A stretch of 64,000 nucleotides of DNA from an uncultured virus (IMG/VR IMGVR_UViG_3300036770_002019). Taxonomy: Duplodnaviria > Heunggongvirae > Uroviricota > Caudoviricetes > Crassvirales. The stretch is taken from the IMG/VR virus record IMGVR_UViG_3300036770_002019, positions 22,683 to 86,682 of that record; one strand, written 5' to 3'. Both the position numbers and the translations under genes were made by a program. How positions within the stretch are numbered: the first letter of the stretch is position 1; each line of letters begins with the position of its first letter. Below the pieces are notes generated by a model that worked only from the letters and a program-made list of their open reading frames with translations, had not been told where the DNA came from and ran no database searches. This document shows positions 25,085 through 58,330 of the stretch, piece after piece.

Positions 25085-28000
25085 ATGGCAACTTGTCCTA
25101 ATAGAAATTTAAAAGCTTGGAAAGATTTAGAAGCTGTTCAAGGAGAATCAATTGCATTAGCGATATGGGATAGATTTGATGGTCGTCCCCCAGAATTCTT
25201 TTACTCTACCCCACTTAAAGAGGGGACAGTAATAACAAAAGGATTTGATGTTCAGACTAGATTTACTGAGGAGCAGAATAATGCTATTCTTGATAGTATT
25301 ATCTACATGCTCATGGAGCAAAAAAAGCAAGAAGGCTTTAAGATAGAAGAGCAAATTGGAAATAAATCCACCAAAGGCTCTATCCCTAATTTCTTTCTGC
25401 AGCAAGCTTATGAGAATGAAAATGGAACAGCTGTTAGTTTAGAAGTAGCAGAATCTATTTGGGGGAAAGAGCAAGCATACGAAACGGCTGTAAGAGAAAA
25501 TCTCCCAGAAGAAACTCAAAATGCATTGTATGATGAGTGGGTAAATGCTATGGAAGAATCAGATGTTTATGAATCTGAACACCCAGCACGTGAAGCCTTT
25601 CTTGATATTTATGAGTTTTGGAATGGGGGTATTATTACCACAGGTAAAACAGAGAATGAAGTAAAATCTGACATAGCTTTAGGTAATATAGATATTGTTG
25701 GGTGGAGAGAACTCCTATCTAATAGAATTAAAGAGTTTGGGTATTCTATCTCAAACGTCGAACAAGAGGTAGAATTTGCATCAGACGAGGACATACTAGA
25801 AAGAATCTACAGTAAAGCTAGTATGGAAGAAGACCCTTCAAAAAAATTATCTGGGAGGATGAAAGAGCTATTAGCTACTATCCCTAACAGACAATTAAAT
25901 TTCCTAGGGTTAGCTAGTTATTTACCTGCAGATCAGATATATAAAGAACTTGCTACAACATTTGCAGGGTTGCAGAACTTCCCTGAAATGCTTGCTCAAG
26001 TAGAGACATTAGCATTACATAAACCTCAGTACGAAGCGGTGTCTGAGTTTATGAAAGGATTGAATAAAAAAGATGCTGCAGCTTTCAGTAGAATCTTTGC
26101 ACAATCTGCAAATGAGTTTTTGTTGATTAGAGTAGAAGCTAAAACTCCTGCAGGAGATGTAGTTAGAATATTTAACCCAAACGAAAACAGGATTGAGAGA
26201 TCTATAGCTACTACTTGGAAGAACGGAGCTGTAGAATCTAACATAGCTAAACCAAAAGCTATCTACAAAGTAACAGAGGAAGGCCTAGAAATAGATCAAA
26301 ATAAAGCTAAAGCTATTGCAGAAAATTGGTTATTGGTTAGAAGAGGTATTGCAGGTGTAGATTCGGTATCATCTACTCAGGGGGAGATATCTAAACCTGT
26401 ACAAGCTCTAACTGATATGCTGTGGAATATGGGGATATACTTAGGTGACCCAGAGATTAAACAAGAAACAGCCAATAACCTACAACAAGTTGTAAATACA
26501 GGAATATTTGTAGTAGAGAAAGGTAGAAGACAAAAACTTACAGGTAGAGCTGCTTATAACTACATTGCAAACAAAGAGGGTAAAAGCTTAGCAAGACTTG
26601 TATCTCAATTTGTAGTACTTAGCCCTGATGGAACTAAAGTTGAAAAAACTTTACGAACAGTTTCCACTACAATGTATGAGTCTCAAGGCTCAACAGTAAG
26701 ACACTTAGCATCGTTTGCCCCATTGTTTTTTGAAATGCGTGGGGATAGTTTTGTTAATGGGAAAGGTAAACAAATCTACCCAATTAATTTACGCCATCAT
26801 TTAGGTCAAGTATTTGAAACTCTTGGGAGTTCTACAGAGGATAAAACTAAGATGATGGATATGTATAGAGAGGATAAATTCTTTGCTCCTGTAGAAGGGA
26901 AAAATGAATTTGACTCTATACTTTTTAGACTTCTACAATCCCCAGAATTTACTAATGAGTTTAGAGCATTTGATTTAGATGCCCTCAAAGATGTTACTAT
27001 TCCTGATGGTACTGTAGATTACGAAAACTTCTCAAATACAGACTCTCTACGCACAAGATTAATTGCATACATCAACTCAGGTAATAGATCTACAGGATTA
27101 ATTGCTATCCCTATTCAATCTGATAGAAAGAAGTTTACTTTCTTCCCATTTGTACGTACAAAAAATTTAGCTGGTACACGAAAAGGTACTTTTGGGATAA
27201 CAGGGATGACTAAAAACGACATCATACTTGGACTTATAGTGCAAGATATGATGCGTATTGCTCATGGTAGAGGAATTCTTAGCAATCAAGTAACTGAAGA
27301 CGGACTCCCAAACCCACCAAAAGACCTTCCTGAAACGTATAAAAAGAATTTAAGTTCCCCAAAATCTATGCAATTTGATGGGACTTTAGTTGGGTCAGAA
27401 GGTAACATCCCTATTGTAACAGATGCTAGGCTTGAATCTAAAACTGGGGAATACTTCATTAGTGATTACATAGAAGAGTTTCTAACTGATCCAGAAGAGC
27501 TTAGAGACATTGAACCAGAAGTATTTAACGAAATACAGACTAAGATCAATGTAATGGTTGAGAGAGCTAACGAATACTTTCTCAACCAAGCTAAGATTTT
27601 AGATACTAAAATAAAAGAACAAGGGATAACTCTCCCAACAGAGGCACGAGAGTTTGGGGATAGAATGTCATTACTTGAAAATTATGTATTTGATGAGTTC
27701 TTAGGTAGAAACGAGATATCTAAAATACTTAGAGGTAGTAGAGCTCACGTAAAAGATATTCAAACCTTTTACAAAAGAGTTGGGCATGCTACTACTCCTG
27801 GGATGGAGGTAGCTTTAGCATCAGATTTAGCTATAAATGGATTGCAGGAAGTAGATGGGATAAGCAACTATGGGATGCCTGATACTTTTATAGAAGCTAC
27901 TTTTAATGATATTAAGCTTAACTTGGATGAAGAGATGCGTACACGCGCGATAGAAAGAGCTGAAGCAATTCGAGACGGACTTATTGAAGCTGGGTATGAT

Positions 28001-31000
28001 GCTGATTTTGCACAGTCAATGGCAGAAGAATACATGCCTAATGAAGTAGAGGGTACAGACGCACAGGGGTTGATTTCAATAGATTTCTATAGAGATCTAA
28101 TGCAAGGTAAAGGAGAGTGGACAATCAACGAAGAGAAAGCTTACGATGCATACAAACAAGCACCCGAAGGAAGTAAGCAATTTGTATATCAAACAGGCTT
28201 TACCCCACAAGGATTTAAACCAGGAGATGCAGTACCTTTTTATCCGCAAAAACCTTACTATGAGTACAATGAACTTGTAGGTGGGGTTGTTACGACTGAC
28301 TCACATAAAAACTCTTATCACTTACTATTAGAAGGGGAAACAAAAAGTAACCCTGTAAAAGACAATCTAAGACGGAGAATGGAGGCTGTTGGAGAGTATG
28401 CAGGCTTGCAACGTATTGGGGTAGCTAACTTTGTAACAGCAAAGAAGATTAAGATCAACAAGGTTAATACTTTGACTGATAAAGTTGGTGGGCTATCTAA
28501 TGTAGGAACTAATACAGTTAACAGTAGAGGACTAAGATTCCCTCAAGAGATCCCAAAAAAGAAAGCTTCTACTACAATGTTTAACCGTCAGGTTAGAAAG
28601 AATACAATATCGAACATTGATCCTAATCACACGTACACATTAAATGCGGGGTTAGATACTGAAATAAAAATATCAGGCCAAGAAATGCTTGATATGTATC
28701 ACGCCGCTATAGAACGTAAAATAGAACTAGAATTTAAGCAAGTAGAGAAAGAGCTTGGGGTAGATAAAATACAGAAAGCTTTAGCTAAACAAGATGTTGA
28801 AGAGTATAATGCAGCTTTAACTTCATTTCTACGTAAGCTTAGAGATAAGATTAAAGACAATAACATTGAAAGGGATCTCCCAACTAACTATGATGCTGGG
28901 TTAAGAATTGAGTTAGATGAAGCTGGGAGACCTCAATACCAAATTCCACTAGACTTCCCTATATACTTTGAAAAGTATGAAAGAGTACTCCTTGGGATGG
29001 CTGTTAATGCTGCATTTAAACAGAAAGTTCCAGGAATGGAGGCTGTGCAAGTTGCAGAAATTGGGGGATATGCTGAATCTGGGGAGTTAAACTTTTACGA
29101 AATCCAAAAAGATAAATCAGGTACCCCAAGAGTAGTTCACATGGAGGTAATGATTCGTGAGGATATAGCTCGTAAATTTGGGTTAGAGCCTGGACAAGAC
29201 TTAGACTCACTCCCAGAAGAACTAAGACGTATTATAGGGTATCGTATCCCCAACCAAGGAAAATCTTCTACAGTAATAATGAAGATTAAACGAATCCTAC
29301 CAGCTAATTATGCAAAAGCTGTTATAGTTCCTGCTCAATTAACTAAACTCACAGGATCTGACTTCGATATTGATAAGATGTTCTTGATGTTCCCAGAAGT
29401 TAGACAAACAGATGCTGGACCAGTTAAAGTTCGTCCTCCTTATGAGGGGATATTAGGAAAAGCTGTCCAGCCTGTAGCGGAATCAATTAATATTTATGCA
29501 GGAGATAATCAAAATGCAGATTTAAGTAATTTCGCAATTCGTCCTTTTGTTGTGCAGGGCGTGGAATACAAATCTGTAGAACAATATTTCCAATCTAAAA
29601 AGTTTGAAATTGCCGAAGTTCTTGAATTTGACACACAAGAAGCTGCTGATAAAGTCTTTGCAATAGCTGATAAGATTATGGAGACATCTTCTGGAGCGCA
29701 GTTAAAAAGACTAGGAAACACAAGAATACCAGGCGTAACTTTTAACGAAGAAAGTTGGAATGTATATGGAGAAGAAGCCATGTATGTGGGTATTTATGAA
29801 AGTTTTAATCAGAACCCAGAAGCAAGAAAACGTTTATTACAAACAGGCAATGCAGAACTAACCCACAAACAAGATAAATCTAAGTGGGGGAAAAAGTTCC
29901 CTGAAATACTAACTAGAGTTAGGGAAGAACTTAAAAAAGAATATCCGCAAGATGTACCTATAAAACCAACCCAACCTTCACAACAAGATTTAAGCACTCC
30001 TACTGCTATCAAACCAGGAGTAGAAAAATTATTTGATTCTAATCCTGAATTAGCTAATCAAGTATATGAAGCTTTGGGGTTTGATAATTTTACTAATCAG
30101 GAAAAAGAAACCTTAATAGCACAATTAAGAAATCCATTATTTGATTTAGTAAGAGGTACTGAATTGTATAATAAATATAAAGGAGAAACTATACCTTACG
30201 GCTATTCAGAAAATTCTTGGAAATTACTTATTTCTGGAATAACTGAATCTAAACTAGATTTAAATAAAATTTTATTAGGTTATAAACAAAGACTTTTAGA
30301 AGAAGAAAACACACCTATTAGAGAAACAGGTATTGACGAAAAAACAGGATTACCAAAAGGATTTAATCCTTCTACTGGTGCATTTGAAGGAGGATTTGGA
30401 GAAATTTCAGAAAAAGAAAATGCAATAAAAACTTCTAAAAATAAAATAAATGTTTTAAATAAATTTATACAACAAAAACAACAAGCTCTACAACTATACT
30501 CTCAATACTTAGATACAGGTAAACAAGATATAGAAGGATTTAAAGATTTTGCTAAATCTCCACTACAACAAGATATAAGCATAGATAAAATAACAGATAT
30601 ATCTATCCTAAACAATATCATTTTAGATGTAGTAGAAGCTGTTCAAGCTAATCTACTCCACGTAAATGAATCTATGGCTCCATTAGATGAATCTACTCTA
30701 CCTAGATTAGTTGCAGATATTGAAGCTAAATTCCCAGAATTACAAGCCCCACTAGAGTTTGCTAGTGTAGACATTGAGACAGAAATGGGGATACGAAATA
30801 CTATAGGTAGAGCTATGCGTGGATTGTGGGCTAACTTTATAGCTGGTCATGCTGTAGCTGCTTTTGGGGATATTGTAGTAAATGCTAACTACGAATTAAA
30901 TTTAGATGGGAAAGCATACCCAAAACTTATAGGAGTTGCAGGGCAAGAAGTTGCAGAGTTCGACAGAGGAGTTCCTATTAACATGATAGGTTCTAGATAC

Positions 31001-32719
31001 TTATCTGCCGCAGTAGATGCTGCTAAAAAACCTTATCAGTATACACTTAATGATAGAACTTTTACTTACCCTATAGAAGCTTATTGGATGGCCTTCTCTG
31101 GGGATACAAAAGCGCTGCATGATTTCTTGAATGTCCCAATCATAAGACAGTTTACTGATTTGTTTTATACAAAGTATGGAGCCAAACCTATACTAATGGA
31201 GAATGCACTATTAGATGTTATCCCTAAAATGTATAAAGACAGCTTGAAAGAAGATAGGTTACGTCCAGCTACCTCAATGACAAGAGAAGAACTTGCAAAC
31301 CCACAAGATCTTCCTCCTGCTAGACAGTACGAGCTGCTATTAAACATGTTAAAGTTTAGAGAGGCTGGTAGATCTATGACTCAAATGTTTAAGGTTATTG
31401 CCCCAGATTCTATGGATGGTATGAACAGCATAGATTCTATTAAATCATACAGAAGTAGACAGAATCAGTTTAACCCTAACATTACAAGCCCAGAAAATCA
31501 AATCTTCATAAACCCAAATGCTCCTTTAGAGCCTGTAGTAGATCAATTTATAGGACAAGTAAGTGTATATGGAATGCAGAGAGGGTTTTCTAATCTCTTT
31601 TTGGATATTGCAGATATGGCTGCTAAGATATTCCCCATGACTGTATCCCCAGCTATGGATAATCTGGACATGAGAATAATGGATTTAACTGGGAATACAC
31701 AATTAAATCCTGAAGCGCATAGAGATATTAGAAGAGCAGCTATGCTAAGTGTATTTGCTCAAGAAGAATCCCCATTAAGAGAATTCTTCAGTGATACGCA
31801 CCTAAAACTAAACTATCTAAACAAGGATAGTAACTTGGTTACAAAGCTCAGGGACTTGAAAGTAAAGTATCCTAAACTTGCAGAAAACTTGTTTATTAGA
31901 AAGTTTGTGGAGAACAATGATAATGACCTCCCAGAAACTAAAGTGTTCTTGTTAGATTTCGATACATCTTATCAAATGACTAGGTTTGAAAAAGATGCAG
32001 TAACTTTAGCAGCATACAGATTACTTAAACGACCAGAAGAAGTTGTTGGGAAAGATGCTTCGATAGAAGATAGACAATCTATAATAAACTTAGCTGAAGA
32101 TCTGTTGATGAACACATTAATAGTTCATGGGTTTAAACAAACGACTGGTTCATACCAAGATCTTATACCTGTAACATTCTTTACAGATAATAGGTTTGCA
32201 CGTTACAACAATCCTGGGGAAAGACTTGGATCCCCAGTTAAATACTTTAGACAGCAGATGACTTCTATGTATACCATAGATACTTTTGATAACTTTGCAG
32301 TAGATTTTATACGCCAAAGCTTTCAAACGTCTCCTGGTGGATACACATTAGTCCAAGGTATACGAAAGAAAGCAACACCTAATGAAATCGTTTTAAGTGA
32401 TAAAGACAAGATTAGAATGTACAGAAATGGGTACCCAATTCCTTTTATTACAGTGACAAACTCTACAACTAACGAAACATTCTTGTACGCATCTGGTCAT
32501 ATTTTAACTTCAGGAACTGTAGAAGGAAAGTATGTAAAAGTTAATCCTTTAGGGGTAGACAGTAAATTAATAGAAGCAACAAACCCTGATAAGTCTGTAA
32601 TCAATGAACAAGGATTACCACTATCATCTATTGTTATGACTTCTACAACTACAGGAATTTCAACTAATGCAGGCTCAATAGCCTCTACAGAGAACCAACA
32701 ATCTATAATCTGCAAATAA
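25085..32719 (+). CDS. Virion RNA polymerase (crAss-like, phi14:2 gp66-type) with inserted NADAR domain
   Basis: TDAQG, GYRIPNQG, catalytic GSDFDIDK (DFDID at 29360-29374) and SAAVDAAK motifs. Confidence 0.92.
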   Translation: MATCPNRNLKAWKDLEAVQGESIALAIWDRFDGRPPEFFYSTPLKEGTVITKGFDVQTRFTEEQNNAILDSIIYMLMEQKKQEGFKIEEQIGNKSTKGSIPNFFLQQAYENENGTAVSLEVAESIWGKEQAYETAVRENLPEETQNALYDEWVNAMEESDVYESEHPAREAFLDIYEFWNGGIITTGKTENEVKSDIALGNIDIVGWRELLSNRIKEFGYSISNVEQEVEFASDEDILERIYSKASMEEDPSKKLSGRMKELLATIPNRQLNFLGLASYLPADQIYKELATTFAGLQNFPEMLAQVETLALHKPQYEAVSEFMKGLNKKDAAAFSRIFAQSANEFLLIRVEAKTPAGDVVRIFNPNENRIERSIATTWKNGAVESNIAKPKAIYKVTEEGLEIDQNKAKAIAENWLLVRRGIAGVDSVSSTQGEISKPVQALTDMLWNMGIYLGDPEIKQETANNLQQVVNTGIFVVEKGRRQKLTGRAAYNYIANKEGKSLARLVSQFVVLSPDGTKVEKTLRTVSTTMYESQGSTVRHLASFAPLFFEMRGDSFVNGKGKQIYPINLRHHLGQVFETLGSSTEDKTKMMDMYREDKFFAPVEGKNEFDSILFRLLQSPEFTNEFRAFDLDALKDVTIPDGTVDYENFSNTDSLRTRLIAYINSGNRSTGLIAIPIQSDRKKFTFFPFVRTKNLAGTRKGTFGITGMTKNDIILGLIVQDMMRIAHGRGILSNQVTEDGLPNPPKDLPETYKKNLSSPKSMQFDGTLVGSEGNIPIVTDARLESKTGEYFISDYIEEFLTDPEELRDIEPEVFNEIQTKINVMVERANEYFLNQAKILDTKIKEQGITLPTEAREFGDRMSLLENYVFDEFLGRNEISKILRGSRAHVKDIQTFYKRVGHATTPGMEVALASDLAINGLQEVDGISNYGMPDTFIEATFNDIKLNLDEEMRTRAIERAEAIRDGLIEAGYDADFAQSMAEEYMPNEVEGTDAQGLISIDFYRDLMQGKGEWTINEEKAYDAYKQAPEGSKQFVYQTGFTPQGFKPGDAVPFYPQKPYYEYNELVGGVVTTDSHKNSYHLLLEGETKSNPVKDNLRRRMEAVGEYAGLQRIGVANFVTAKKIKINKVNTLTDKVGGLSNVGTNTVNSRGLRFPQEIPKKKASTTMFNRQVRKNTISNIDPNHTYTLNAGLDTEIKISGQEMLDMYHAAIERKIELEFKQVEKELGVDKIQKALAKQDVEEYNAALTSFLRKLRDKIKDNNIERDLPTNYDAGLRIELDEAGRPQYQIPLDFPIYFEKYERVLLGMAVNAAFKQKVPGMEAVQVAEIGGYAESGELNFYEIQKDKSGTPRVVHMEVMIREDIARKFGLEPGQDLDSLPEELRRIIGYRIPNQGKSSTVIMKIKRILPANYAKAVIVPAQLTKLTGSDFDIDKMFLMFPEVRQTDAGPVKVRPPYEGILGKAVQPVAESINIYAGDNQNADLSNFAIRPFVVQGVEYKSVEQYFQSKKFEIAEVLEFDTQEAADKVFAIADKIMETSSGAQLKRLGNTRIPGVTFNEESWNVYGEEAMYVGIYESFNQNPEARKRLLQTGNAELTHKQDKSKWGKKFPEILTRVREELKKEYPQDVPIKPTQPSQQDLSTPTAIKPGVEKLFDSNPELANQVYEALGFDNFTNQEKETLIAQLRNPLFDLVRGTELYNKYKGETIPYGYSENSWKLLISGITESKLDLNKILLGYKQRLLEEENTPIRETGIDEKTGLPKGFNPSTGAFEGGFGEISEKENAIKTSKNKINVLNKFIQQKQQALQLYSQYLDTGKQDIEGFKDFAKSPLQQDISIDKITDISILNNIILDVVEAVQANLLHVNESMAPLDESTLPRLVADIEAKFPELQAPLEFASVDIETEMGIRNTIGRAMRGLWANFIAGHAVAAFGDIVVNANYELNLDGKAYPKLIGVAGQEVAEFDRGVPINMIGSRYLSAAVDAAKKPYQYTLNDRTFTYPIEAYWMAFSGDTKALHDFLNVPIIRQFTDLFYTKYGAKPILMENALLDVIPKMYKDSLKEDRLRPATSMTREELANPQDLPPARQYELLLNMLKFREAGRSMTQMFKVIAPDSMDGMNSIDSIKSYRSRQNQFNPNITSPENQIFINPNAPLEPVVDQFIGQVSVYGMQRGFSNLFLDIADMAAKIFPMTVSPAMDNLDMRIMDLTGNTQLNPEAHRDIRRAAMLSVFAQEESPLREFFSDTHLKLNYLNKDSNLVTKLRDLKVKYPKLAENLFIRKFVENNDNDLPETKVFLLDFDTSYQMTRFEKDAVTLAAYRLLKRPEEVVGKDASIEDRQSIINLAEDLLMNTLIVHGFKQTTGSYQDLIPVTFFTDNRFARYNNPGERLGSPVKYFRQQMTSMYTIDTFDNFAVDFIRQSFQTSPGGYTLVQGIRKKATPNEIVLSDKDKIRMYRNGYPIPFITVTNSTTNETFLYASGHILTSGTVEGKYVKVNPLGVDSKLIEATNPDKSVINEQGLPLSSIVMTSTTTGISTNAGSIASTENQQSIICK
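29483..29940 (+). other. NADAR (YbiA-like) domain embedded in the RNAP
   Basis: LSNF...SVEQYFQSKKF...W...M...F.QNPE...LLQTG..L.H..D..WG...IL..VREEL. Confidence 0.85.
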
Positions 32720-35700
32720 TGAGCTGCGAATATAAAATAAACGGGAAAACAGACCCAACCCATACAGAGTTATTCAACTATGTTGCGAATAACAGAGAGA
32801 GATCTGCAGACGAAGTATACAGAATACTGAGAGAAGCAGGCATAGCAATTAAAAAAAATGATGCTGGAGGGAATCCTCGTATGTACTTAGTTATGGGTAC
32901 AGATAGCTCTGTTAGCTACAAACGAGCTCAAGACATAAATTTAGGAGCTAGATTATTTTTTGGAGTGCCTCAAAACGAAAGACTTTTAGAGTACACTAAT
33001 CTAGGTACTAGAAGTAACAAATTTACTGGGGTAAATACTCTGTTTGGGTTGAGGATTAATGAGTCCGTTTTAAAAAATATGGAGTCACCTCAACAGCAGT
33101 ATGAAAATATTGCAGAGATACTTGAAGAGGAGGCTAGAAGAGTTATCTTAGACACTCCATCCCCATTTAGGGATGATTATTTATTATCGGAGGCTGCTCT
33201 TCAAGCTAATAATTCTGAAAGATCTAAGTTTTCTAAGATGGCTCAAAATAGTGTAGATAACACTGTTAAGCAAATTACAAAACTAAAACAGGCATTTAAG
33301 AATGCTGGTATTGATGTAGAGGTAAGATTAGATGGGGATATCGAAGAAAAGGGGGTTTTACTTCCAGTAAGTGAAGACAACCCAAATCCAGTAATACTTC
33401 TTAACCCAAACGAAATTACAGAAGATACTGTATACCATGAGTTTGCTCACTTGTTCATAGATTTATTGGGGTATAATCACCCACTTGTACAACAAGCTAT
33501 GGAAGAGCTTAGAGGTAGTGAACTTTACCAAGAAGTATTAGAGTACTACCCCGAGCTGGAAGGAGATACTGAAAGATTAGATAAAGAAGTACTTGCAACA
33601 GCAATAGGATTAGAAGGGGCACGAATGGAGAAGAAGGCCCCTAACAAATTACAATCCATTATAAATAGAATATTCAGAGCTATAGGAAAGTTACTTGGGG
33701 TATCTCAAAACGCAGTTTCTCAGTTAGCTGTAAATATGATTGTGAATGAAATAGATGTTACTCAATTTAGAGGGGCACTATCTTCATATGCTCAAATGAG
33801 TAAAGCTGAACGCAATGTAAAAAACATTGTAGAAACTCTTAGGGAGAAAACAGAAACAGCTATTCTACAATTAGAGTCTCTCCCATTTAAAAACGAAGCC
33901 GCTATTAACGAACTCAAACTCCAGCAATCTAAACTAGAGACGGTTACAGAAGTAGAGGGTTTGATTGACTTTGTTAACTACACAACTAGATTAGCTGCTA
34001 GAGCTGAAACAACTTTTGAAAACATCTTAACTGAGTATTCTCCTAATCCTGCACTAATTACTGGGGAAAAAAGATTACAAATGCTGCAACAATTGCATCA
34101 AGTACATCAATGGTTGCAGGCATTTCACAATAACACTAGCAAAAATGGGTCTACACTTACAGCTATCAAGTTAGAGCTACGTAAAAAAACAGATGCTGTA
34201 GAAGCTTCTGGTGGGAATATAGCAGAGCTAACAGCTTTTAAAACCAGACTGGCAGATGCTATTGATGTATTAGATGAGTTAGACGAAAAGTATGCTAAAG
34301 TGGGTATCCCAATTCTAGCAGATCTTCTATTAGAATATAACAAACCGCAGATCGACGATAAAATTAATGCAGCAATAGAAAAAGTCCGCACTACTGGTAG
34401 AGAATTTGGGTTGGAGAGAAAGACCCCTGAATTTAGAGAACTGCAAAGACAGCTTAAAGCAGGAGAAATAACTAAACAAGAGTTTGATGCTGCAAAGATT
34501 GAATTGAATATAAAACATCTACAAGCCCGTAAAATTGGGAGAGAAGCTATTATTCAAGAGCTTACTGAGAGTCAAAAGAATAAAAGCTGGTTATCATATA
34601 TGATGGATCCAGTTATATACTCATCTCAACCAGCTATACAGTTATTTGCAGGACACGTTAAAGCAGCACTATACAGAGCTGCAGATAAGTTTAGAGAAAC
34701 TAAATATGAACTCAGAGACATCTACAGAGAGTATGCAGAGTCAAGACCTGGGACGGAATTTGACGATGCAGCTTTCAACGAACCTGTTCTTGAAACTTAC
34801 ACATATGAAGTTATAGATTGGGAGGAAACTAAGAAGACTGGGGAACATGTAACTAAGAGAATGAATCTTTTAAGTTTTGTTCAACCTTATGATGTTGGGA
34901 AGTATTACCAGGCAGAAACAGATGCAATTACATCTTTAGCTAAAAAATATAATCGACCTACAGACCCAGACGAATTAAAAGCTTGGACTAAATCTAAAAA
35001 AGCAACTCAATATTATGCTGAGCTTTCGCAATGGTATGCAGAAAACTCTGTAATGGCAGAAGATGCTCAAGAGAGATATGATACTTTAATAAGTAAAAGA
35101 AAAGCTCTCCAAGTAGAATTAGAACAAGCTTTACAGGTAGGGAATTCTAATAAAGTTGGGTTGTTAGAAGCAGAGATAGCTTCTTTATCTACTCAAATTG
35201 GGGCAGCATATGACTTTAGAGCTAAACAATTTAAAGGTTCATTCGCTCGACCAAATGATAAGTACAGATCTGAAAAGTACGAAAAGCTTGTAAAAGATAA
35301 ATCGTCTGTAGAATATAGATACTATCAAGCGTTATTAAATGAGTACAAGAAATCTCAAAAGAAATTAGGACGTACAAACCAAGTTAGAAATAGTTGGAAT
35401 GACTTTTCTTACATACTCCCAACAGTTAGAAAATCTACCCTTAATAAAACAATAGAGGGGGCAAGTTCTATAGATGTATCTCAAGTTGTATCTGCAGGTA
35501 AAGATATGATTAAAGATACGTATGAAATCCTGGAAACAGATACTGACTACGGGGTACTTGTAGGATTAAATGGGGAAAGATTACAAACTGTACCTGTATT
35601 CTTTACAAACCCTGTAGATGAAAAAGATGTAAGTAGGGATGCTCTTGGGAGCATACTTAAGTTTACACATATGTCCAACATGTTTGAAGAAAAATCTAAG

Positions 35701-37284
35701 ATACTTGGGTCTGTAGAAATGATGAGAAGTGTTATTGAACAGCGAGGAACTTTAGAGCAAGATGAATCAGGTAACCCAGCGTTTAATAAAGTTACAGCCA
35801 GACTTAAAAATATGGCCAAGCGTGCTGTAACACAAGACCCTAAAAAAGACCCAGATAATCAATTTAGACATTTAAGTGAATTCATAGACTCTGTATTCTA
35901 TGGGGAAAAAGATCTTAAAAATCAATTAAATGCATCAATAAGATTATTTGGGAAAGAGATAGACATATCTGGGAATAAACTTTCTCAAACAGCAACAACT
36001 CTAACTGCAGCTACGTCATTGATTGGGAACAAGCTGCAAGCAGTTAACCAGATAATAATGGATAATGAACGTTTGATTGAAGAAGGGATTGCAGGAGAGT
36101 ACTTTGGGAAATTAGATTTAGCTTGGGCAAAAGGAGAGTACTATAAAAATCTACTGACTTTAAAGACAGTAAAAGATGCAGGTAGTTTTGCTAAGGATAA
36201 TAAAATGCTTCAAGCTGCAGAGCTATTAGATGCATTATCTGATTTAATAGACAGCAATGGGGATAGAGTTACAGGAGCTCGTCTTAAAAAGTATCTGTCC
36301 TTTGATACAGGATTCTTTATGCAGAACATGGCAGAACATGAAACTGCTTTAACACGAATGCTTGCTGTAGCTAGAGGATACAAAGGAAAGCTAAAAGATG
36401 CTGCAGGTAATGTAATATTGAACGAAAAGAACGAACCTGCAGATTTATACGACCTGCTTGTAAAAGATAAAAAAGGAATGTTAACTCTGGACCCAAGAGT
36501 AGCTAATATTACTTTGTACGATGTAAGGAGTACATTAGCAGGATTACAAAAGAAATCCAATCAGCTTAAAGGATCAGTAGATAGGTCTATGGCTGAAAGA
36601 AGAGCTGCAGGAAAGATGGTTACTTTGTTTAGAAGATTCTTAGCCCCAGGTTTTAGAAGACATTGGGGTCATGGAGGGTTAGCTAACGTAGCTTTCTTAC
36701 ATGTAGATACAGAAACAGGAATGCTGTCTGAAGGAGCGTATTGGACTACATTCAAATACATTCGAGATCAAGTACAAAGTATAGCTACAAAACAACCAGC
36801 TAATGTTTGGAATTTATTAACTGCAGATGAAAAAGCTAACGTACGTAGAACTGCTGCACAATCTACATTCTTTTTAAGTTCTATGATTTTAAGTGGATTG
36901 TTAATGGGGGCAGCAGCAGATGAGGACGATGAGGAAAAAGCTGCTCAATACATTTTCTGGGCGTACCAAGCTAGAAGACTGCAGACTGAACTTGGGGCAT
37001 TCTTATCCCCAAAAGAAGTGTACAACATTACTAAATCCCCATCAGCTGCTTCTAGGCCTATAATGAATATATATGATCTAATGACACATATTGTTTTCAA
37101 AGAGATACCGTATGCTTTAGGTGCAGATGGATTAGAAAAAGATATTTTCTACCAACGCAAAAGCGGGGAATTTGAAAAAGGGGATAGAAAAGTAATTAAG
37201 AAGATCAGATCTGTTATCCCAGTATGGAGCGGGTTAAACAAAAACGCTGAAGAGGCTATTAAGTGGTTTGATCTTAATGGGTAA
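32719..37284 (+). CDS. Giant ejection protein with zincin-like metalloprotease domain
   Basis: VYHEFAH (HExxH) plus a downstream EVLA glutamate; C-terminal hydrophobic helix; typical third crAss-like cargo protein. Confidence 0.75.
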   Translation: MSCEYKINGKTDPTHTELFNYVANNRERSADEVYRILREAGIAIKKNDAGGNPRMYLVMGTDSSVSYKRAQDINLGARLFFGVPQNERLLEYTNLGTRSNKFTGVNTLFGLRINESVLKNMESPQQQYENIAEILEEEARRVILDTPSPFRDDYLLSEAALQANNSERSKFSKMAQNSVDNTVKQITKLKQAFKNAGIDVEVRLDGDIEEKGVLLPVSEDNPNPVILLNPNEITEDTVYHEFAHLFIDLLGYNHPLVQQAMEELRGSELYQEVLEYYPELEGDTERLDKEVLATAIGLEGARMEKKAPNKLQSIINRIFRAIGKLLGVSQNAVSQLAVNMIVNEIDVTQFRGALSSYAQMSKAERNVKNIVETLREKTETAILQLESLPFKNEAAINELKLQQSKLETVTEVEGLIDFVNYTTRLAARAETTFENILTEYSPNPALITGEKRLQMLQQLHQVHQWLQAFHNNTSKNGSTLTAIKLELRKKTDAVEASGGNIAELTAFKTRLADAIDVLDELDEKYAKVGIPILADLLLEYNKPQIDDKINAAIEKVRTTGREFGLERKTPEFRELQRQLKAGEITKQEFDAAKIELNIKHLQARKIGREAIIQELTESQKNKSWLSYMMDPVIYSSQPAIQLFAGHVKAALYRAADKFRETKYELRDIYREYAESRPGTEFDDAAFNEPVLETYTYEVIDWEETKKTGEHVTKRMNLLSFVQPYDVGKYYQAETDAITSLAKKYNRPTDPDELKAWTKSKKATQYYAELSQWYAENSVMAEDAQERYDTLISKRKALQVELEQALQVGNSNKVGLLEAEIASLSTQIGAAYDFRAKQFKGSFARPNDKYRSEKYEKLVKDKSSVEYRYYQALLNEYKKSQKKLGRTNQVRNSWNDFSYILPTVRKSTLNKTIEGASSIDVSQVVSAGKDMIKDTYEILETDTDYGVLVGLNGERLQTVPVFFTNPVDEKDVSRDALGSILKFTHMSNMFEEKSKILGSVEMMRSVIEQRGTLEQDESGNPAFNKVTARLKNMAKRAVTQDPKKDPDNQFRHLSEFIDSVFYGEKDLKNQLNASIRLFGKEIDISGNKLSQTATTLTAATSLIGNKLQAVNQIIMDNERLIEEGIAGEYFGKLDLAWAKGEYYKNLLTLKTVKDAGSFAKDNKMLQAAELLDALSDLIDSNGDRVTGARLKKYLSFDTGFFMQNMAEHETALTRMLAVARGYKGKLKDAAGNVILNEKNEPADLYDLLVKDKKGMLTLDPRVANITLYDVRSTLAGLQKKSNQLKGSVDRSMAERRAAGKMVTLFRRFLAPGFRRHWGHGGLANVAFLHVDTETGMLSEGAYWTTFKYIRDQVQSIATKQPANVWNLLTADEKANVRRTAAQSTFFLSSMILSGLLMGAAADEDDEEKAAQYIFWAYQARRLQTELGAFLSPKEVYNITKSPSAASRPIMNIYDLMTHIVFKEIPYALGADGLEKDIFYQRKSGEFEKGDRKVIKKIRSVIPVWSGLNKNAEEAIKWFDLNG

Positions 37285-39084: not shown

Positions 39085-39863
39085 TCATCATCAGATTGAG
39101 TGTTGTTTGAAATTGTTTCTATGTTATGTACTACAAGTTCAGGAATAATATTACTCCCAAACTCCCTAATAACATCCTGTGGTGTTTTTAAGAGGTACAC
39201 TAATCTAAAAGTCTGATTGAATTTAAAGATTCCTTCAGTCATACCAAACTGCTCCACATACTTTTTAATAGTAAATGCTTCAAAATCCTTTGTTCTGTCC
39301 TTTAACCAATTTTCTGCTGTCTTCTCCCCTACTCCTCTTAATCCTGGTATGTTATCAGTAGAGTCCCCCATCAACACTTGTTTCCAAAGAAACCACAATG
39401 CTACGCCAGGGGAAGTATGTACAAATTCTGTTGTACGATAGTTGTAATGCATGCCAACACATTGATACAATACATCTTTATCTGGGGAACAAATGATAGT
39501 TTTACGTTCCGTATTATATGCATAATACGCAACTAAATCATCTGCCTCAAGTTCTGAAATGTATGTAAATCTCCAACGCTGTATTAAATATTCCACTAAA
39601 GCTGGGAATATAATAGGCCTTGAAGATCTGGAATCTTTACGTTTGGCTTTATACAAAGGGTCAACATTATATCTAAAACATTGACCTTTAGTAAGAAAAC
39701 CTGCAAAAGAAGAGGTGTTGCAACTGTTCAACATATGATAAATACGTTGATCAAGTCCAGCAACAGCCTCCTCTAATGTAGGTTTATCCATCTCGTAGTA
39801 CAACAGAGAATCCCCATCAATCAAACAAATATCATTACCTTTTGGGATTCTCTCTATACTCAT
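39078..39863 (-). CDS. 5'-3' exonuclease/RNase H (FEN-like)
   Basis: LIDGD, YKAKR, EADD, DKD and GDSTDNIPGLRGVGEKTA (H3TH) motifs. Confidence 0.9.
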   Translation of the reverse strand: MSIERIPKGNDICLIDGDSLLYYEMDKPTLEEAVAGLDQRIYHMLNSCNTSSFAGFLTKGQCFRYNVDPLYKAKRKDSRSSRPIIFPALVEYLIQRWRFTYISELEADDLVAYYAYNTERKTIICSPDKDVLYQCVGMHYNYRTTEFVHTSPGVALWFLWKQVLMGDSTDNIPGLRGVGEKTAENWLKDRTKDFEAFTIKKYVEQFGMTEGIFKFNQTFRLVYLLKTPQDVIREFGSNIIPELVVHNIETISNNTQSDDEW

Positions 39864-41032
39864 TATAAGTTCATAAGATTGTTAACGTCACTTTGGATCT
39901 CTGTAATTGCATTAGAATATTCTTTTGCAATAGCAGCTCTCATCTCTTCCCACTCACTGTCAGTCTTAGCTGCATAAGTAGATGAATGATAGATAGATCC
40001 ATTAATCCCAGTCAAACTAGAATGTACGAAATACTGCAAGCAACGAACAGCTCCTGTAGAATCATCAGGTATTGCCCCAACATGCATAGGATCTACAAAC
40101 ACATTGTGAATCTCACCTGAGTAATTGTTGATGTACACCAATCCCCCAAAATGAAGACCTTTAACACAAGATGCACGATCGTTAGTGTTTACTTTATCCC
40201 AAGAATCTAAGCGATGTACACATCCCACTTTAATGAAATGCCCAGGCTTAGAATATCCATTAGGGCCCTCACAATAGAATGCATCTCCACCTTGACCTTG
40301 AACTGCAGGTTCAAACAAACGATCTTCTACAAACTCTGGGAGACCTTCAGATTCAATCTCCCCAGTATCTGCGTTGAATGTACGCTTATATCTATCTACA
40401 ATCTCCCCAGTCGCAGTATCAAACTTGTGTAGAATCTCCCTAGATACTTTGTACCCATTCAATAACCCCTCTTTAGTGATTTTGATTTGATACATAGTAG
40501 CTCTTTCCTCAGCAACTTCTTCACTGAGTCCATGCTTCTCCATAAACTCTTTCTTAAGTTTAGGGTGAACATACTTCATGTTAATGAAATTGAACATTCT
40601 CTCAGAGAACTCTTCACCTCTCCCATCTTTGAGCTTTGTGCGAAGAACAGGGTTACGTAACCAACGAGTCCATAATTTAATAAGAGGTTCAAAATCTACC
40701 CCCATATCCATAGACTCGTAGATACGATCTACAAGAGCTTTAGGTATAGGAACATTTGTGATACTTGTACCGCTTTTCAAGAAAAACTCTTTTGTTACAG
40801 GATTAACATAAATGAATTCACACTTATCTTGAACAAGTTTAGAGTAATCATGAATTAGTAAAGTAGAGAACTCTTCTAAAGCAAGATTGTACTCCTGGAT
40901 AGTTGTTGCAGTATTTGCTTTGTCAGCTACTTTCAACATTGACTGATACAAATCTCTATCGTATGATACAGAAAACGATTCGTTTCCATACGATCCGCTG
41001 ATGTGATCATTAATAACATTTACACTAATCAT
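39863..41032 (-). CDS. rIIB-like protein
   Basis: GYK, SCVKGLHFG and VDPMHVGAIP motifs; directly downstream of the rIIA-like gene. Confidence 0.75.
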   Translation of the reverse strand: MISVNVINDHISGSYGNESFSVSYDRDLYQSMLKVADKANTATTIQEYNLALEEFSTLLIHDYSKLVQDKCEFIYVNPVTKEFFLKSGTSITNVPIPKALVDRIYESMDMGVDFEPLIKLWTRWLRNPVLRTKLKDGRGEEFSERMFNFINMKYVHPKLKKEFMEKHGLSEEVAEERATMYQIKITKEGLLNGYKVSREILHKFDTATGEIVDRYKRTFNADTGEIESEGLPEFVEDRLFEPAVQGQGGDAFYCEGPNGYSKPGHFIKVGCVHRLDSWDKVNTNDRASCVKGLHFGGLVYINNYSGEIHNVFVDPMHVGAIPDDSTGAVRCLQYFVHSSLTGINGSIYHSSTYAAKTDSEWEEMRAAIAKEYSNAITEIQSDVNNLMNL

Positions 41033-41053
41033 AAATTTTTAATTTTAAAGTGT

Positions 41054-43684
41054 TTATACTTGTGGTAAATTAATTTCAATATCAAGCTTACCACGAGACT
41101 TGATGTAATGTTCTATTTCTTTCTTGAAATCTTCATCTTTATAGTACGGAAATCTCAAATTATCTAGTATGTGATGTATCCCTTCTATAAACTCATCCTT
41201 TGTTCTAGCAAGTTTAACTATCTCAGAATCAAATGCTTCAACTGCTTTTATATCTGTAAAAATAAACAATTCCCTTGACTTATTCGCTACAAGTGTATCA
41301 TCATAATTAACAGACTCACAGTAAGTTTGGAATTCAACAAACTTGTCTATGAGCTCAACAATATCCGAATGTCCTCCGTCAGGAAAACCTGCATATTTAG
41401 TTTTATATTCATCCAACAATTCGTACATTTTTGGGTAATCAAGGCTGATAAAATCTAACTCATTCAACCAATTTGGGAGAGTCTTGATAGATCTACCAGT
41501 GATCCATTTAACTAAATGATGGTCCATAGTAATAGTATTGCGATTAGAATCGTAATCATAAAAGAATGTATCTATATGCTTACAATTAGGGTTTTGTTCA
41601 AGATACTTAAGTTTGTCTTCACTTACTTTTAATAGTTGTGGTACTGGTAATTCTTTGTCACTCCTACTATTACCTTTAAATCTTTCTTGAGGATAATCTA
41701 CATAGAATATGTATTGTTGATTGTACCAATAACCTAATGAATGATATAAATGCGATGCGTTGATATTAAATTTCTTCAAAACACTTGCTGCGAACATCAA
41801 CTTATCCCCATCTTTACTACTACCGTAATAAGTTATTTTTTCGGAATGAAGTAACGTACTTAGTTTAGGCTCTACTTTATCCCACACATATTCATTTTCA
41901 TGAATACGAATGCTATATGCAACTACTCTAGATTCTAATTCCCGCTTTTGGCTTGGGGTTAATGATTTAGATTCATCAACCTTATCTAAAAACTCATCAA
42001 TATTCGCTAAAGCTTTTCTATATTCATCTGGTACTACAACATCCTCATAAGATTTAGTAAGTTCAGATTTCTCTAAATACCCAAATATCTTATTTCTATG
42101 ATGCAAAAGTTTTGCAGCTTGAGTTGCATCTAAATCATCAGCTATGAACTCTGCAATTTCCCTAGCTTCAATAATTATGATTCTATCAAACTGCTCTGTG
42201 AGGTATGTATCTTTAGCTCTGTCTCTTGGAGTTTCAGAATCTTTAATAAAGACAGCATCAAAGTTGAATGTCAACCAGGTAGTTACAGCCTCTGAAGTAA
42301 TACTTACCTTCCCAGATTTAGTTACAGATTGAATTACTTCCCTTACATGCAATCCTTTGAATAAAGCTTTTGGACCTATAAAAGTAATAGCAGAATCTTT
42401 GGGATATTTAGGTTTAATATCCTCTGTATCAATGATCTTACTGATTTGCCTAAGAGCACTATTAGAATTATTAGAAGATTTGTGTAATACATCCCTGCAA
42501 GCTTGTAACCATTTGAGGAAGTCATCTTCTTGCAGTTGTTCCTCTACAAGATTTGTGGCCTCTAAAGCAGCATTCTTAATTACTCCCTGAATAAATAGTT
42601 TAGTTGGTTCATTCCATATAACTTTCTCTCTTGATGGGGTTACTTCTACACCATCCTGTATTACAATCTCTTCCCCAGTCTCTGGGTTCTTTATACTTTG
42701 TCGTACAGGACATTTCAAACCTACACTACCGTACAATTGTTCCATCTCAAGCTCTCTAAAATCAACATACCCGTAGTTAATACCTGCAGTTGACTTTACA
42801 TCTTTAACTACTACAATGTGAGGTTTGTTGTATATGCTTGAGTTAGTTACAATAATACTATCAGAATTGTGAATAATCTGATTGTGTATACTTTTCTCCC
42901 ACTTTGTCCCATCTTCATGTATAAACAATTTTACGTTGTGTAAGTAATTTAGTTGATCTTGTACCGATTCTTCGAACCTAGATCTATTATGCTTCTTAAC
43001 CCCAAATGAAACTATTGTGTAGTTCTTTTCCTCAGTCTCTTCATAATGCACTTTAGTCCCATCACTAAATTCAATGTACGGGTTAAACTGTGGAATTATG
43101 AAATCTGTTTTGTATGGGTAACAGTTACATTTAAACTTTTTCCCATTGTGTACAGTTTCAATTGTGTAGAAATCTACCCCAGTAGATAATGCTACTTTAG
43201 CCCCTAAACCAAAGGCCCCGAAGTTTTGTGAAGTATTACGTTTAGTAGAATATCCTAATTCTAGTACACCCTCTAAACGTTTACCCCCAATACCCACACC
43301 ACAGTCTATGATTTCTATTTTATCACAATACCCAATCCCCTCATTACGATAATAGTTAATAATGATGTCATTGGTGTCTTGATTCAAACAGTTCAAATCA
43401 TAGTAGTCAGGGTTAAAGTTAGAATCAGAATATTGTTCCCCATCTCTTCTGATGAAGTAATCTTCTTCTGTTTTTACCCCTGTTAAAATCTCAATAGCTA
43501 TCTCCTTCTCTCGTTGAGAATCGCATGCATTTGTTACAAGCTCTCTAATAGTAGAAGGAATAGGGTTAGAATACTGAGTTGCTTGGAGTATGTCAAACAC
43601 CATCTTCTCAGCACCTTTGTTTATGCGTTTAGATACACCATCAATATTAGATTGTATATCCGCATCTATAGTTTTGATACTCAT
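41054..43684 (-). CDS. rIIA-like protein (GHKL ATPase)
   Basis: YSNPIPSTIRELVTNACDS, DCGVG, GAFGLGAK, TPSRE. Confidence 0.85.
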   Translation of the reverse strand: MSIKTIDADIQSNIDGVSKRINKGAEKMVFDILQATQYSNPIPSTIRELVTNACDSQREKEIAIEILTGVKTEEDYFIRRDGEQYSDSNFNPDYYDLNCLNQDTNDIIINYYRNEGIGYCDKIEIIDCGVGIGGKRLEGVLELGYSTKRNTSQNFGAFGLGAKVALSTGVDFYTIETVHNGKKFKCNCYPYKTDFIIPQFNPYIEFSDGTKVHYEETEEKNYTIVSFGVKKHNRSRFEESVQDQLNYLHNVKLFIHEDGTKWEKSIHNQIIHNSDSIIVTNSSIYNKPHIVVVKDVKSTAGINYGYVDFRELEMEQLYGSVGLKCPVRQSIKNPETGEEIVIQDGVEVTPSREKVIWNEPTKLFIQGVIKNAALEATNLVEEQLQEDDFLKWLQACRDVLHKSSNNSNSALRQISKIIDTEDIKPKYPKDSAITFIGPKALFKGLHVREVIQSVTKSGKVSITSEAVTTWLTFNFDAVFIKDSETPRDRAKDTYLTEQFDRIIIIEAREIAEFIADDLDATQAAKLLHHRNKIFGYLEKSELTKSYEDVVVPDEYRKALANIDEFLDKVDESKSLTPSQKRELESRVVAYSIRIHENEYVWDKVEPKLSTLLHSEKITYYGSSKDGDKLMFAASVLKKFNINASHLYHSLGYWYNQQYIFYVDYPQERFKGNSRSDKELPVPQLLKVSEDKLKYLEQNPNCKHIDTFFYDYDSNRNTITMDHHLVKWITGRSIKTLPNWLNELDFISLDYPKMYELLDEYKTKYAGFPDGGHSDIVELIDKFVEFQTYCESVNYDDTLVANKSRELFIFTDIKAVEAFDSEIVKLARTKDEFIEGIHHILDNLRFPYYKDEDFKKEIEHYIKSRGKLDIEINLPQV

Positions 43685-52587: not shown

Positions 52588-52603
52588 TTGTAATTGATTT
52601 TAG

Positions 52604-52677
52604 TGCGCCCACCAGGGCTTGAACCTGGGACCCACGGATTATGAGTCCGTTGCTCTAACCAACTGAGCTATGGGCGC
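52604..52677 (-). tRNA. tRNA with CAT anticodon, probably Ile2 (lysidine type) rather than Met
   Basis: Complete cloverleaf GCGCCCA...ACGGA-CTCATAA-TCCGT...TTCAA...TGGGCGC-A; C4 and C5 fit TilS determinants; no encoded CCA. Confidence 0.9.
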
Positions 52678-58234: not shown

Positions 58235-58256
58235 TTTTTTTGTATTAAATTGTTAG

Positions 58257-58330
58257 TACCCCCAACAGGACTCGAACCTGTAACCGAGAGGATAGAAGCC
58301 TCTTGTTCTCTCCAATTGAACTATGGGGGC
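58257..58330 (-). tRNA. tRNA-Arg(TCT)
   Basis: Cloverleaf GCCCCCA...AGAGG-CTTCTAT-CCTCT...TTCGAGT...TGGGGGT-A; has the A20 Arg identity element. Confidence 0.88.

Follow-up and report, generated by a model that had tools for sequence, protein, structure and literature searches.

A NADAR domain in an internal slot of a predicted crAss-type virion RNA polymerase: a candidate injected de-ADP-ribosylase

Introduction

RNA polymerases that travel in the virion have been described for crAss-like phages. The gp66 protein of phage phi14:2 is reported to be packaged, to enter the cell with the DNA and to transcribe the early genes, with an activity that requires every Asp of its DFDID motif (preprint 10.1101/2020.03.07.982082), and the polymerase proteins of crAss001 have been reported as virion cargo by mass spectrometry (PMC10172136). 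Here, we analyze 64,000 nucleotides – referred to throughout as the window – of an uncultured virus of the Crassvirales (IMG/VR record IMGVR_UViG_3300036770_002019, positions 22,683 to 86,682), in which a predicted RNA polymerase of this kind carries an inserted NADAR domain a short distance past its catalytic motif. The record comprises 86,682 bases and is rated complete by CheckV.

NADAR domains are best known for reversing ADP-ribosylation. In vitro, all four NADAR families are reported to hydrolyse guanine-linked ADP-ribose (G-ADPr) carried by both DNA and RNA (PMC11125620; PMC12945103), and phage T4 gp30.3, named AdfN, is described as stripping ADP-ribose from DNA and as both necessary and sufficient against the DarTG1 system during infection (PMC11257639). 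The catalytic position is given as Glu for the YbiA type, as Asp for DarG1 and as His for the gp30.3 NADARs of phages, and the phage type as a bare core that lacks the DarG1 extension (PMC11543638, PMC11125620, PMC12945103). In the Phytophthora nicotianae NADAR, E43 and K50 are reported to hold the distal ribose and the phosphate (PMC11543638). A first-pass annotation of the window had taken it as established that crAss-like RNA polymerases are delivered from the virion and that DarG1 antitoxins and some phage orphan NADARs act on guanine ADP-ribosylated by DarT1; the reports on phi14:2 and crAss001 support the former for homologues, and the His-type AdfN supports the latter.

NADAR domains are also reported to be packaged often in virions across phages, and polyvalent proteins of phages and conjugative elements (Iyer, Burroughs, Anand, de Souza and Aravind) are described as giant virion proteins with shuffled effectors, presumed to act soon after injection, among which ADP-ribosyltransferase (ART) and NADAR domains are typical (PMC9503650). 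That logic and that frequent packaging are thus already reported. A text search of the literature, with supplementary tables outside its reach, found nothing linking crAss-like polymerases with NADAR, DUF1768 or YbiA; one paper lists a NADAR gene in a table with no link to such polymerases (PMC10607447). What is new here is an internal slot next to the catalytic barrel that a second lineage has used independently, together with a core-less ART remnant that shares the cassette with the NADAR. By analogy with the described systems, we think it rather likely that the NADAR domain serves as a pre-made, injected de-ADP-ribosylase for counter-defence.

Results

The NADAR domain and its catalytic residues

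The features on which the comparison turns are as follows.

25085..32719, plus strand: predicted crAss-type virion RNA polymerase, 2544 amino acids (aa), homologue of phi14:2 gp66 (phmmer, structural model, tblastn).
29360..29374, plus strand: catalytic DFDID motif, aa 1426-1430, aligning to gp66 1361-DFDID-1365.
29483..29938, plus strand: NADAR domain of the phage gp30.3/AdfN type, aa 1467-1618 (PF08719, AlphaFold2, Foldseek).
29579..29866, plus strand: span of the predicted catalytic residues E1499 (29579-29581), K1506 (29600-29602) and H1594 (29864-29866); also D1597 and W1601 (alignment, clade conservation).

The first-pass annotation had placed a NADAR-like domain about 36 codons after DFDID; a Pfam search, which it had proposed, and a fold prediction both agree with it. 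The domain starts at aa 1467 (nt 29483), 37 codons past the motif, and the excised 152 aa match Pfam PF08719 (NADAR) with 60.1 bits (E 4.1e-16, cut-off 35.1); the same family scores 53.0 bits on the whole polymerase, at aa 1476-1603, and 58.2 bits in the genome search. The phage family PF08010 (Phage_30_3) is matched at the margin, with 36.9 bits for the excised domain (cut-off 36.0) and 29.4 bits for the whole protein. In the PDB the sequence matches 2b3w (YbiA) and 8bau (the NADAR of P. nicotianae). An AlphaFold2 model built with 41 clade members has a predicted local distance difference test score (pLDDT) of 95.8 and the alpha-helical core fold of YbiA; its three best Foldseek matches in the PDB are all NADARs (2b3w, template modelling score, TM, 0.71; 8bau, 0.64; 8bat, 0.48), and everything beyond them has E >= 2.

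The residues that the first-pass annotation had singled out fall where catalysis would require them. SVEQYFQSKK (aa 1497-1506) contains E1499 and K1506, which correspond in the alignment to E43 and K50 of 8bau; LTHKQDKSKWG (aa 1592-1602) contains, within LTHKQD, H1594 at the position of the catalytic E125. Across 42 clade members the Lys is invariant, the Glu, the His, D1597 and W1601 are each at least 90% conserved, and the LTH motif is common to the window domain and KVP40 gp30.3. Profile, fold and catalytic residues together identify the domain as an intact NADAR, predicted to be a hydrolase, and its sequence places it with the phage gp30.3/AdfN type, His replacing the catalytic Glu.

The likeness to T4 gp30.3 extends to the minimal core without the DarG1 N-terminal extension, to a Glu and Lys spaced seven apart, to the His at the Glu/Asp position and, by analogy, to the expected activity, removal of ADP-ribose from guanine. 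Identity between the window NADAR and the phage gp30.3 type is nevertheless only about 30-36%, and T4 gp30.3 is a free-standing early gene, whereas the window domain is a module of a virion polymerase and can be presumed to be there ahead of any gene expression. Embedded as it is in a 2544-aa open reading frame (ORF), it resembles AdfN as a domain but is no AdfN orthologue in gene architecture. With the DarG1 (BC4488-type) antitoxins (8BAT; reported in PMC11543638) it shares the fold, the Glu and Lys residues and the predicted guanine-ADP-ribose chemistry. It differs in having His for the catalytic Asp and in lacking the N-terminal DNA-binding extension, since only 8 aa separate the domain from polymerase sequence; nor is there an adjacent DarT1, PF14487 (DarT) finding no match in the phage genome, a weak negative because it finds none in the control genomes either. 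We also considered a YbiA-type housekeeping role in handling riboflavin intermediates, and rejected it because the domain is a His variant, sits in a virion protein and belongs to a phage-specific clade.

The polymerase that carries the domain

Two further features bear on the identity of the carrier.

30785..30868, plus strand: bridge-helix-like segment, aa 1901-1928, with a 31-residue model helix (aa 1895-1925) whose position matches the gp66 bridge helix (1529-1559).
32719..37284, plus strand: homologue of phi14:2 gp65, an RNA polymerase-associated virion protein, directly downstream of the polymerase gene (BLASTP E 2e-41, 25% identity over 726 aa).

The ORF at 25085..32719 runs through 2544 codons with neither stop nor frameshift. 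Searched against the PDB with phmmer, the product matches gp66 (6vr4_A) with E 9.9e-16, aa 1100-1440 aligning with gp66 1058-1389 and including GSDFDIDKM; the trigger-loop region (aa 1965-2062) aligns with gp66 1613-1711. An AlphaFold2 model of aa 980-2100 (1121 aa, 48 aligned sequences, mean pLDDT 72) superimposes on 6vr4_A with Z 20.9 and a root-mean-square deviation of 3.5 over 658 residues, the next structural matches being QDE-1 (Z 14) and plant RDR2. The polymerase core is well folded in this model; the NADAR part has pLDDT 25-40 there because the alignment lacks cover for it. Matches of the window polymerase in tblastn lie at annotated crAss RNA polymerases, and the gene order is that of phi14:2 g067-g066-g065, followed in both by a strand switch. 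Given the gp66 match, the 6VR4 structural alignment, the tblastn matches and the gp65 homologue with the strand switch beyond it, the product is predicted, in agreement with the first-pass annotation, to be a crAss-type virion RNA polymerase of the gp66 family. The model has the two-barrel fold with the DFD[IV]D motif, bridge helix and trigger loop of that family. It shares DFDID, the two-barrel fold, the bridge helix, the trigger-loop region and the order with the gp65 homologue with phi14:2 gp66 (6VR4) and the crAss001 polymerase cargo proteins; gp66, by contrast, has no NADAR.

A cassette of several modules in a normally short loop

The NADAR domain lies at the beginning of a longer insertion, composed as listed below.

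29459..30553, plus strand: cargo cassette, 365 aa (aa 1459-1823), lying after the catalytic double-psi barrel and before the bridge helix; lacking in the relatives P0006, P0005, P0010, P0018 and others.
29939..30007, plus strand: Pro/Gln-rich linker, aa 1619-1641 (from the sequence; low pLDDT in the polymerase model).
30008..30082, plus strand: cassette linker peptide IKPGVEKLF..NPELA..VYEALGF, aa 1642-1666, conserved in other cassettes.
30083..30472, plus strand: module M, about 130 aa with no assigned family, aa 1667-1796; recurs in P0008 and P0017.
30473..30553, plus strand: predicted remnant of an ART-PolyVal module, an N-flank ..QLYSQYLDT joined directly to a C-flank GKQDIEGFKDFA; the flanks enclose a full module in P0055.

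An 8-residue linker (aa 1459-1466) precedes the NADAR domain, which is followed in order by the Pro/Gln-rich linker, the conserved peptide, module M and the ART-PolyVal flanks. We placed the boundaries of the insertion by alignment with 11 relatives and gp66, and measured the length of the slot with hidden Markov models (HMMs) for the segments before and after it. The slot is normally a loop of about 10 aa that follows the last double-psi-barrel strands and precedes the bridge helix by about 70 residues. In 68 of 72 proteins and loci it measures 0-24 aa and in two about 88 aa, compared with 286 in P0004 and 379 in the window. In P0006, which is 85% identical in the core, ..PPYEALLG is followed by about 10 residues and then by ..TSIDKITDVSILNN.. 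(the TSIDKITD region), where the window has 365 extra residues. The earlier view that the polymerase is interrupted by a domain of about 150 aa is thus correct as to the interruption, the slot being nearly empty in P0006; the insert is longer, and the NADAR domain is only its first module. At the same point gp66 carries about 75 aa of its own, in which no relation to the cassette can be detected.

The other parts of the cassette recur elsewhere. The linker peptide opens cassettes of P0004, P0008, P0033, P0055 and P0070 at widely differing positions. Module M matches no Pfam family at E <= 10 (aa 1619-1800 searched), and its best score in the ESM Atlas is 0.84, below the line of 0.9, with no family. 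Near-identical copies of it are found at about aa 500-650 of P0008, a giant protein in which no polymerase core is detectable, and at about aa 2380-2490 of P0017. Module M looks like a portable module of its own.

The end of the cassette appears to keep only the flanks of an ART module, because the same peptides flank a full ART-PolyVal domain in P0055 (Pfam PF18760 at aa 3812-3935, 32.9 bits, cut-off 31.2). The identical core-less junction occurs in P0017. The catalytic core absent from the window's module amounts to roughly 100-200 aa, and a custom module HMM finds no ART match in the window protein (P0002). These flanks raise the question whether the NADAR is, or was, an antidote to a phage-borne ADP-ribosyltransferase of the same cassette, limiting self-damage in the manner of DarT1-NADAR and YarT-YbiA. 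ART-NADAR toxin-antitoxin pairs are indeed described (PMC11125620), and where a member of the NADAR clade and an ART of this type occur in one protein (12 cases), they are no more than about 130 aa apart in 9. Those 12, however, are drawn from 203 NADAR-bearing proteins (by a custom HMM that is narrow), the ART core is gone from the window, and P0004 keeps an ART-like module without a NADAR. Like DarT, PF18760 finds no match in the 86.7-kb genome, nor any in the control genomes. We regard such an antidote role as quite unlikely.

Recent gain of the cassette

The closest full-length relative, P0004 (84% identity over aa 1-1458), has the same slot and the same linkers with a different, 286-aa cassette that lacks a NADAR. 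Its cargo (aa 1465-1741) gives sub-threshold leads only, to ART-PolyVal (23.2 bits against 31.2) and GNAT (15.2 against 25.4). Among the 25 proteins that match best in the core (47-87% identity across about 360 aa), not one has a NADAR. The nearest NADARs (52-66% identity) are in proteins whose cores are only 22-43% identical, and at other positions: at aa 1273-1423 in P0019, upstream of its motif at 1619, and near the C-termini in P0020, P0126 and P0025. Among the cluster representatives searched, the arrangement of the window recurs only in P0124, a fragment with 100% identity.

Because close cores lack the NADAR and the nearest NADARs lie elsewhere in distant polymerases, the cassette appears to be mobile and recently gained by the window lineage. 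It is present, absent or exchanged between relatives, and its linkers and modules recur in other giant proteins. Read this way, the polymerase would itself be a polyvalent protein, a giant virion protein with shuffled, lineage-variable effector domains. It departs from the described polyvalent proteins (as reported in PMC9503650) in that the carrier is an essential virion RNA polymerase and the cargo sits in an internal loop by the catalytic barrel, not at an end.

Cassette shuffling could also have moved the NADAR as a neutral or decaying passenger without present function. The neighbouring ART module has lost its core and close relatives do without the whole cassette, as a passenger would predict. 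Every residue that is at least 90% conserved in the 42 clade members is nonetheless kept in the window, including the Glu, Lys, His, Asp and Trp, the domain model is confident, and the reading frame is free of stops and frameshifts; we consider a functionless passenger highly improbable.

NADAR domains on other crAss-type polymerases

A NADAR-domain search of 1.84 billion cluster representatives returned 1104 proteins at E <= 1e-3, of which 431 reached E <= 1e-10. Polymerase core and motif are both present in 54 of the best 150 representatives. Sixty-six of these 150 are at least 2000 aa long, with core and motif in 51 and the core only in 7 more; the short NADAR proteins among the 150 may be contig fragments. 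By these comparisons the NADAR clade appears to be frequent on crAss-type polymerases. When IMG/VR was instead seeded by the polymerase core alone, 2 of 80 loci had a NADAR on the same strand within 4 kb, a reach around the catalytic region that farther N- or C-terminal copies would escape.

The best GenBank phage match to the window NADAR (43% identity) is in QOR59539.1 of cr126_1 (Kolpuevirus hominis, MT774391.1), labelled 'DUF1768 domain-containing protein', which is likewise a polymerase of the crAss type, with DFDID at aa 1509 and a fused NADAR from this clade. Its NADAR occupies aa 54-201 at the N-terminus, some 1300 residues upstream of DFDID. In the 54 polymerases the NADAR mostly follows the motif by 650-1500 residues, close to the C-terminus, or lies far upstream of it; none of the 54, all from the best 150 representatives, has its NADAR within 450 residues downstream. 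The first-pass annotation had seen the active-site neighbourhood as the point of the design; the placement of the clade, mostly C-terminal, N-terminal or upstream of the motif, does not support this, nor do the closest relatives, whose slot is empty or holds other cargo. Another recurrent internal position is seen in P0019, P0129 and P0238, 247-346 residues upstream of DFDID, approximately the connector region between the two barrels in gp66 numbering.

The slot has a second NADAR-bearing occupant. At locus L026 (L026:4868-5400), a divergent NADAR, 39% identical to that of the window, starts 35 residues past DFDID in the homologous slot; in its relative L036 (L036:2183-2300), 81% identical before the slot and 65% after it, the slot is empty. 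Different NADARs thus appear, from these alignments, to have been inserted at the same point in two unrelated lineages. With this reuse, the slot is at least a favoured insertion point.

Reuse is also an argument that position matters, such that a NADAR tethered at the exit of the catalytic barrel would scan the single-stranded template or non-template strand, clean it co-transcriptionally and let the polymerase clear its own path. Both lineages have an empty-slot relative (P0006 for the window, L036 for L026), and the linker on the N-side is short. Moreover, gp66 is reported to transcribe single-stranded DNA well in vitro (10.1101/2020.03.07.982082), and the G-ADPr substrates tabulated in PMC12945103 include single-stranded DNA. 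Set against these are the 54 NADAR polymerases with their domains elsewhere, the other cargo (sub-threshold GNAT and ART-PolyVal) that P0004 carries in the same slot, and the 0-24 aa to which the slot is confined in most relatives. In multisubunit polymerases, furthermore, the segment after the catalytic barrel lines the nucleoside triphosphate-entry side and not the DNA cleft, which by analogy counts against a role for position. Co-transcriptional cleaning from this site seems unlikely to us. The same doubt attaches to the slot as a selected docking site, with a fused repair-transcription machine that 'proofreads' ADP-ribose off the template and arose at least twice (window and L026). That the insert lies in this slot is probably owed to a permissive loop at the surface.

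Discussion

The injected de-ADP-ribosylase that we favour would work as follows. As is described for phi14:2 and crAss001, the polymerase would be packaged and would enter the cell together with the DNA, and because packaging and injection can be expected from these homologues and from gp65 synteny, the NADAR would arrive pre-made. It would then remove ADP-ribose from guanine of phage DNA (or RNA) that DarT1-like ADP-ribosyltransferases of the host had modified, so that the first round of transcription and later replication could proceed before any phage gene expression. The polymerase would be mainly a delivery vehicle and tether for the NADAR.

Several observations weigh against this. The domain is far from universal, a NADAR being found near the catalytic region in only 2 of the 80 core-seeded IMG/VR loci. 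T4 gp30.3 is reported not to rescue DarT1 toxicity in uninfected E. coli (PMC11125620, PMC11257639), and because of this failure the substrate range of His-type NADARs in vivo may be narrow or dependent on DNA modification. A NADAR delivered in this way must refold after tail passage, for which partial unfolding has been proposed (PMC10172136). Most phage NADARs, finally, have been argued to target soluble ADP-ribose derivatives instead (PMC9503650).

That last proposal, made for phage NADARs generally, would have the window domain degrade soluble ADP-ribose-derived immune signals or by-products, such as the cyclic ADP-ribose isomers made by TIR proteins, or else RNA-linked ADP-ribose or NAD caps, in place of DNA repair. 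An RNA target has some backing in the reported removal of G-ADPr from RNA by NADARs (PMC12945103). The literature consulted holds no demonstration that a NADAR cleaves such signals, however; the sole tested His-type member is described as acting on DNA-linked ADP-ribose during infection (PMC11257639), and the few enzyme copies in a virion are poorly suited to draining a diffusible pool. We judge these substrates improbable as the main target of the domain.

If the host ADP-ribosylates incoming DNA, a phage that relies on an injected polymerase cannot wait for an anti-defence gene to be expressed, and an eraser pre-loaded by fusion to that polymerase would solve the early problem. The frequency of this NADAR clade on crAss-type polymerases would suggest that the ADP-ribosylation of nucleic acids exerts a major pressure on a very abundant phage group. 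The compact, well-folded domains described here are on offer for probing the substrate range of His-type NADARs. Relatives at 84-87% identity whose slot is empty, holds the NADAR or holds other cargo constitute, together with the second lineage, a natural experiment on position.

Other features of the window

A 960-aa protein of the virion block (14012-16894, plus strand) contains an endolysin-like stretch at aa 95-199 (phrog_10341, E 1.7e-7) and may, from this match, be a virion-borne cell-wall hydrolase. Two adjacent genes on the minus strand (39863-43684) resemble those for the RIIB and RIIA lysis-inhibition (exclusion) proteins (phrog_609, E 5.7e-9, and phrog_612, E 6.8e-16). The minus strand also encodes tRNA-Met(CAT) at 52603-52677 and tRNA-Arg(TCT) at 58256-58330. 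Local G+C content rises to 0.43 at 52-54 kb, from about 0.35 elsewhere.

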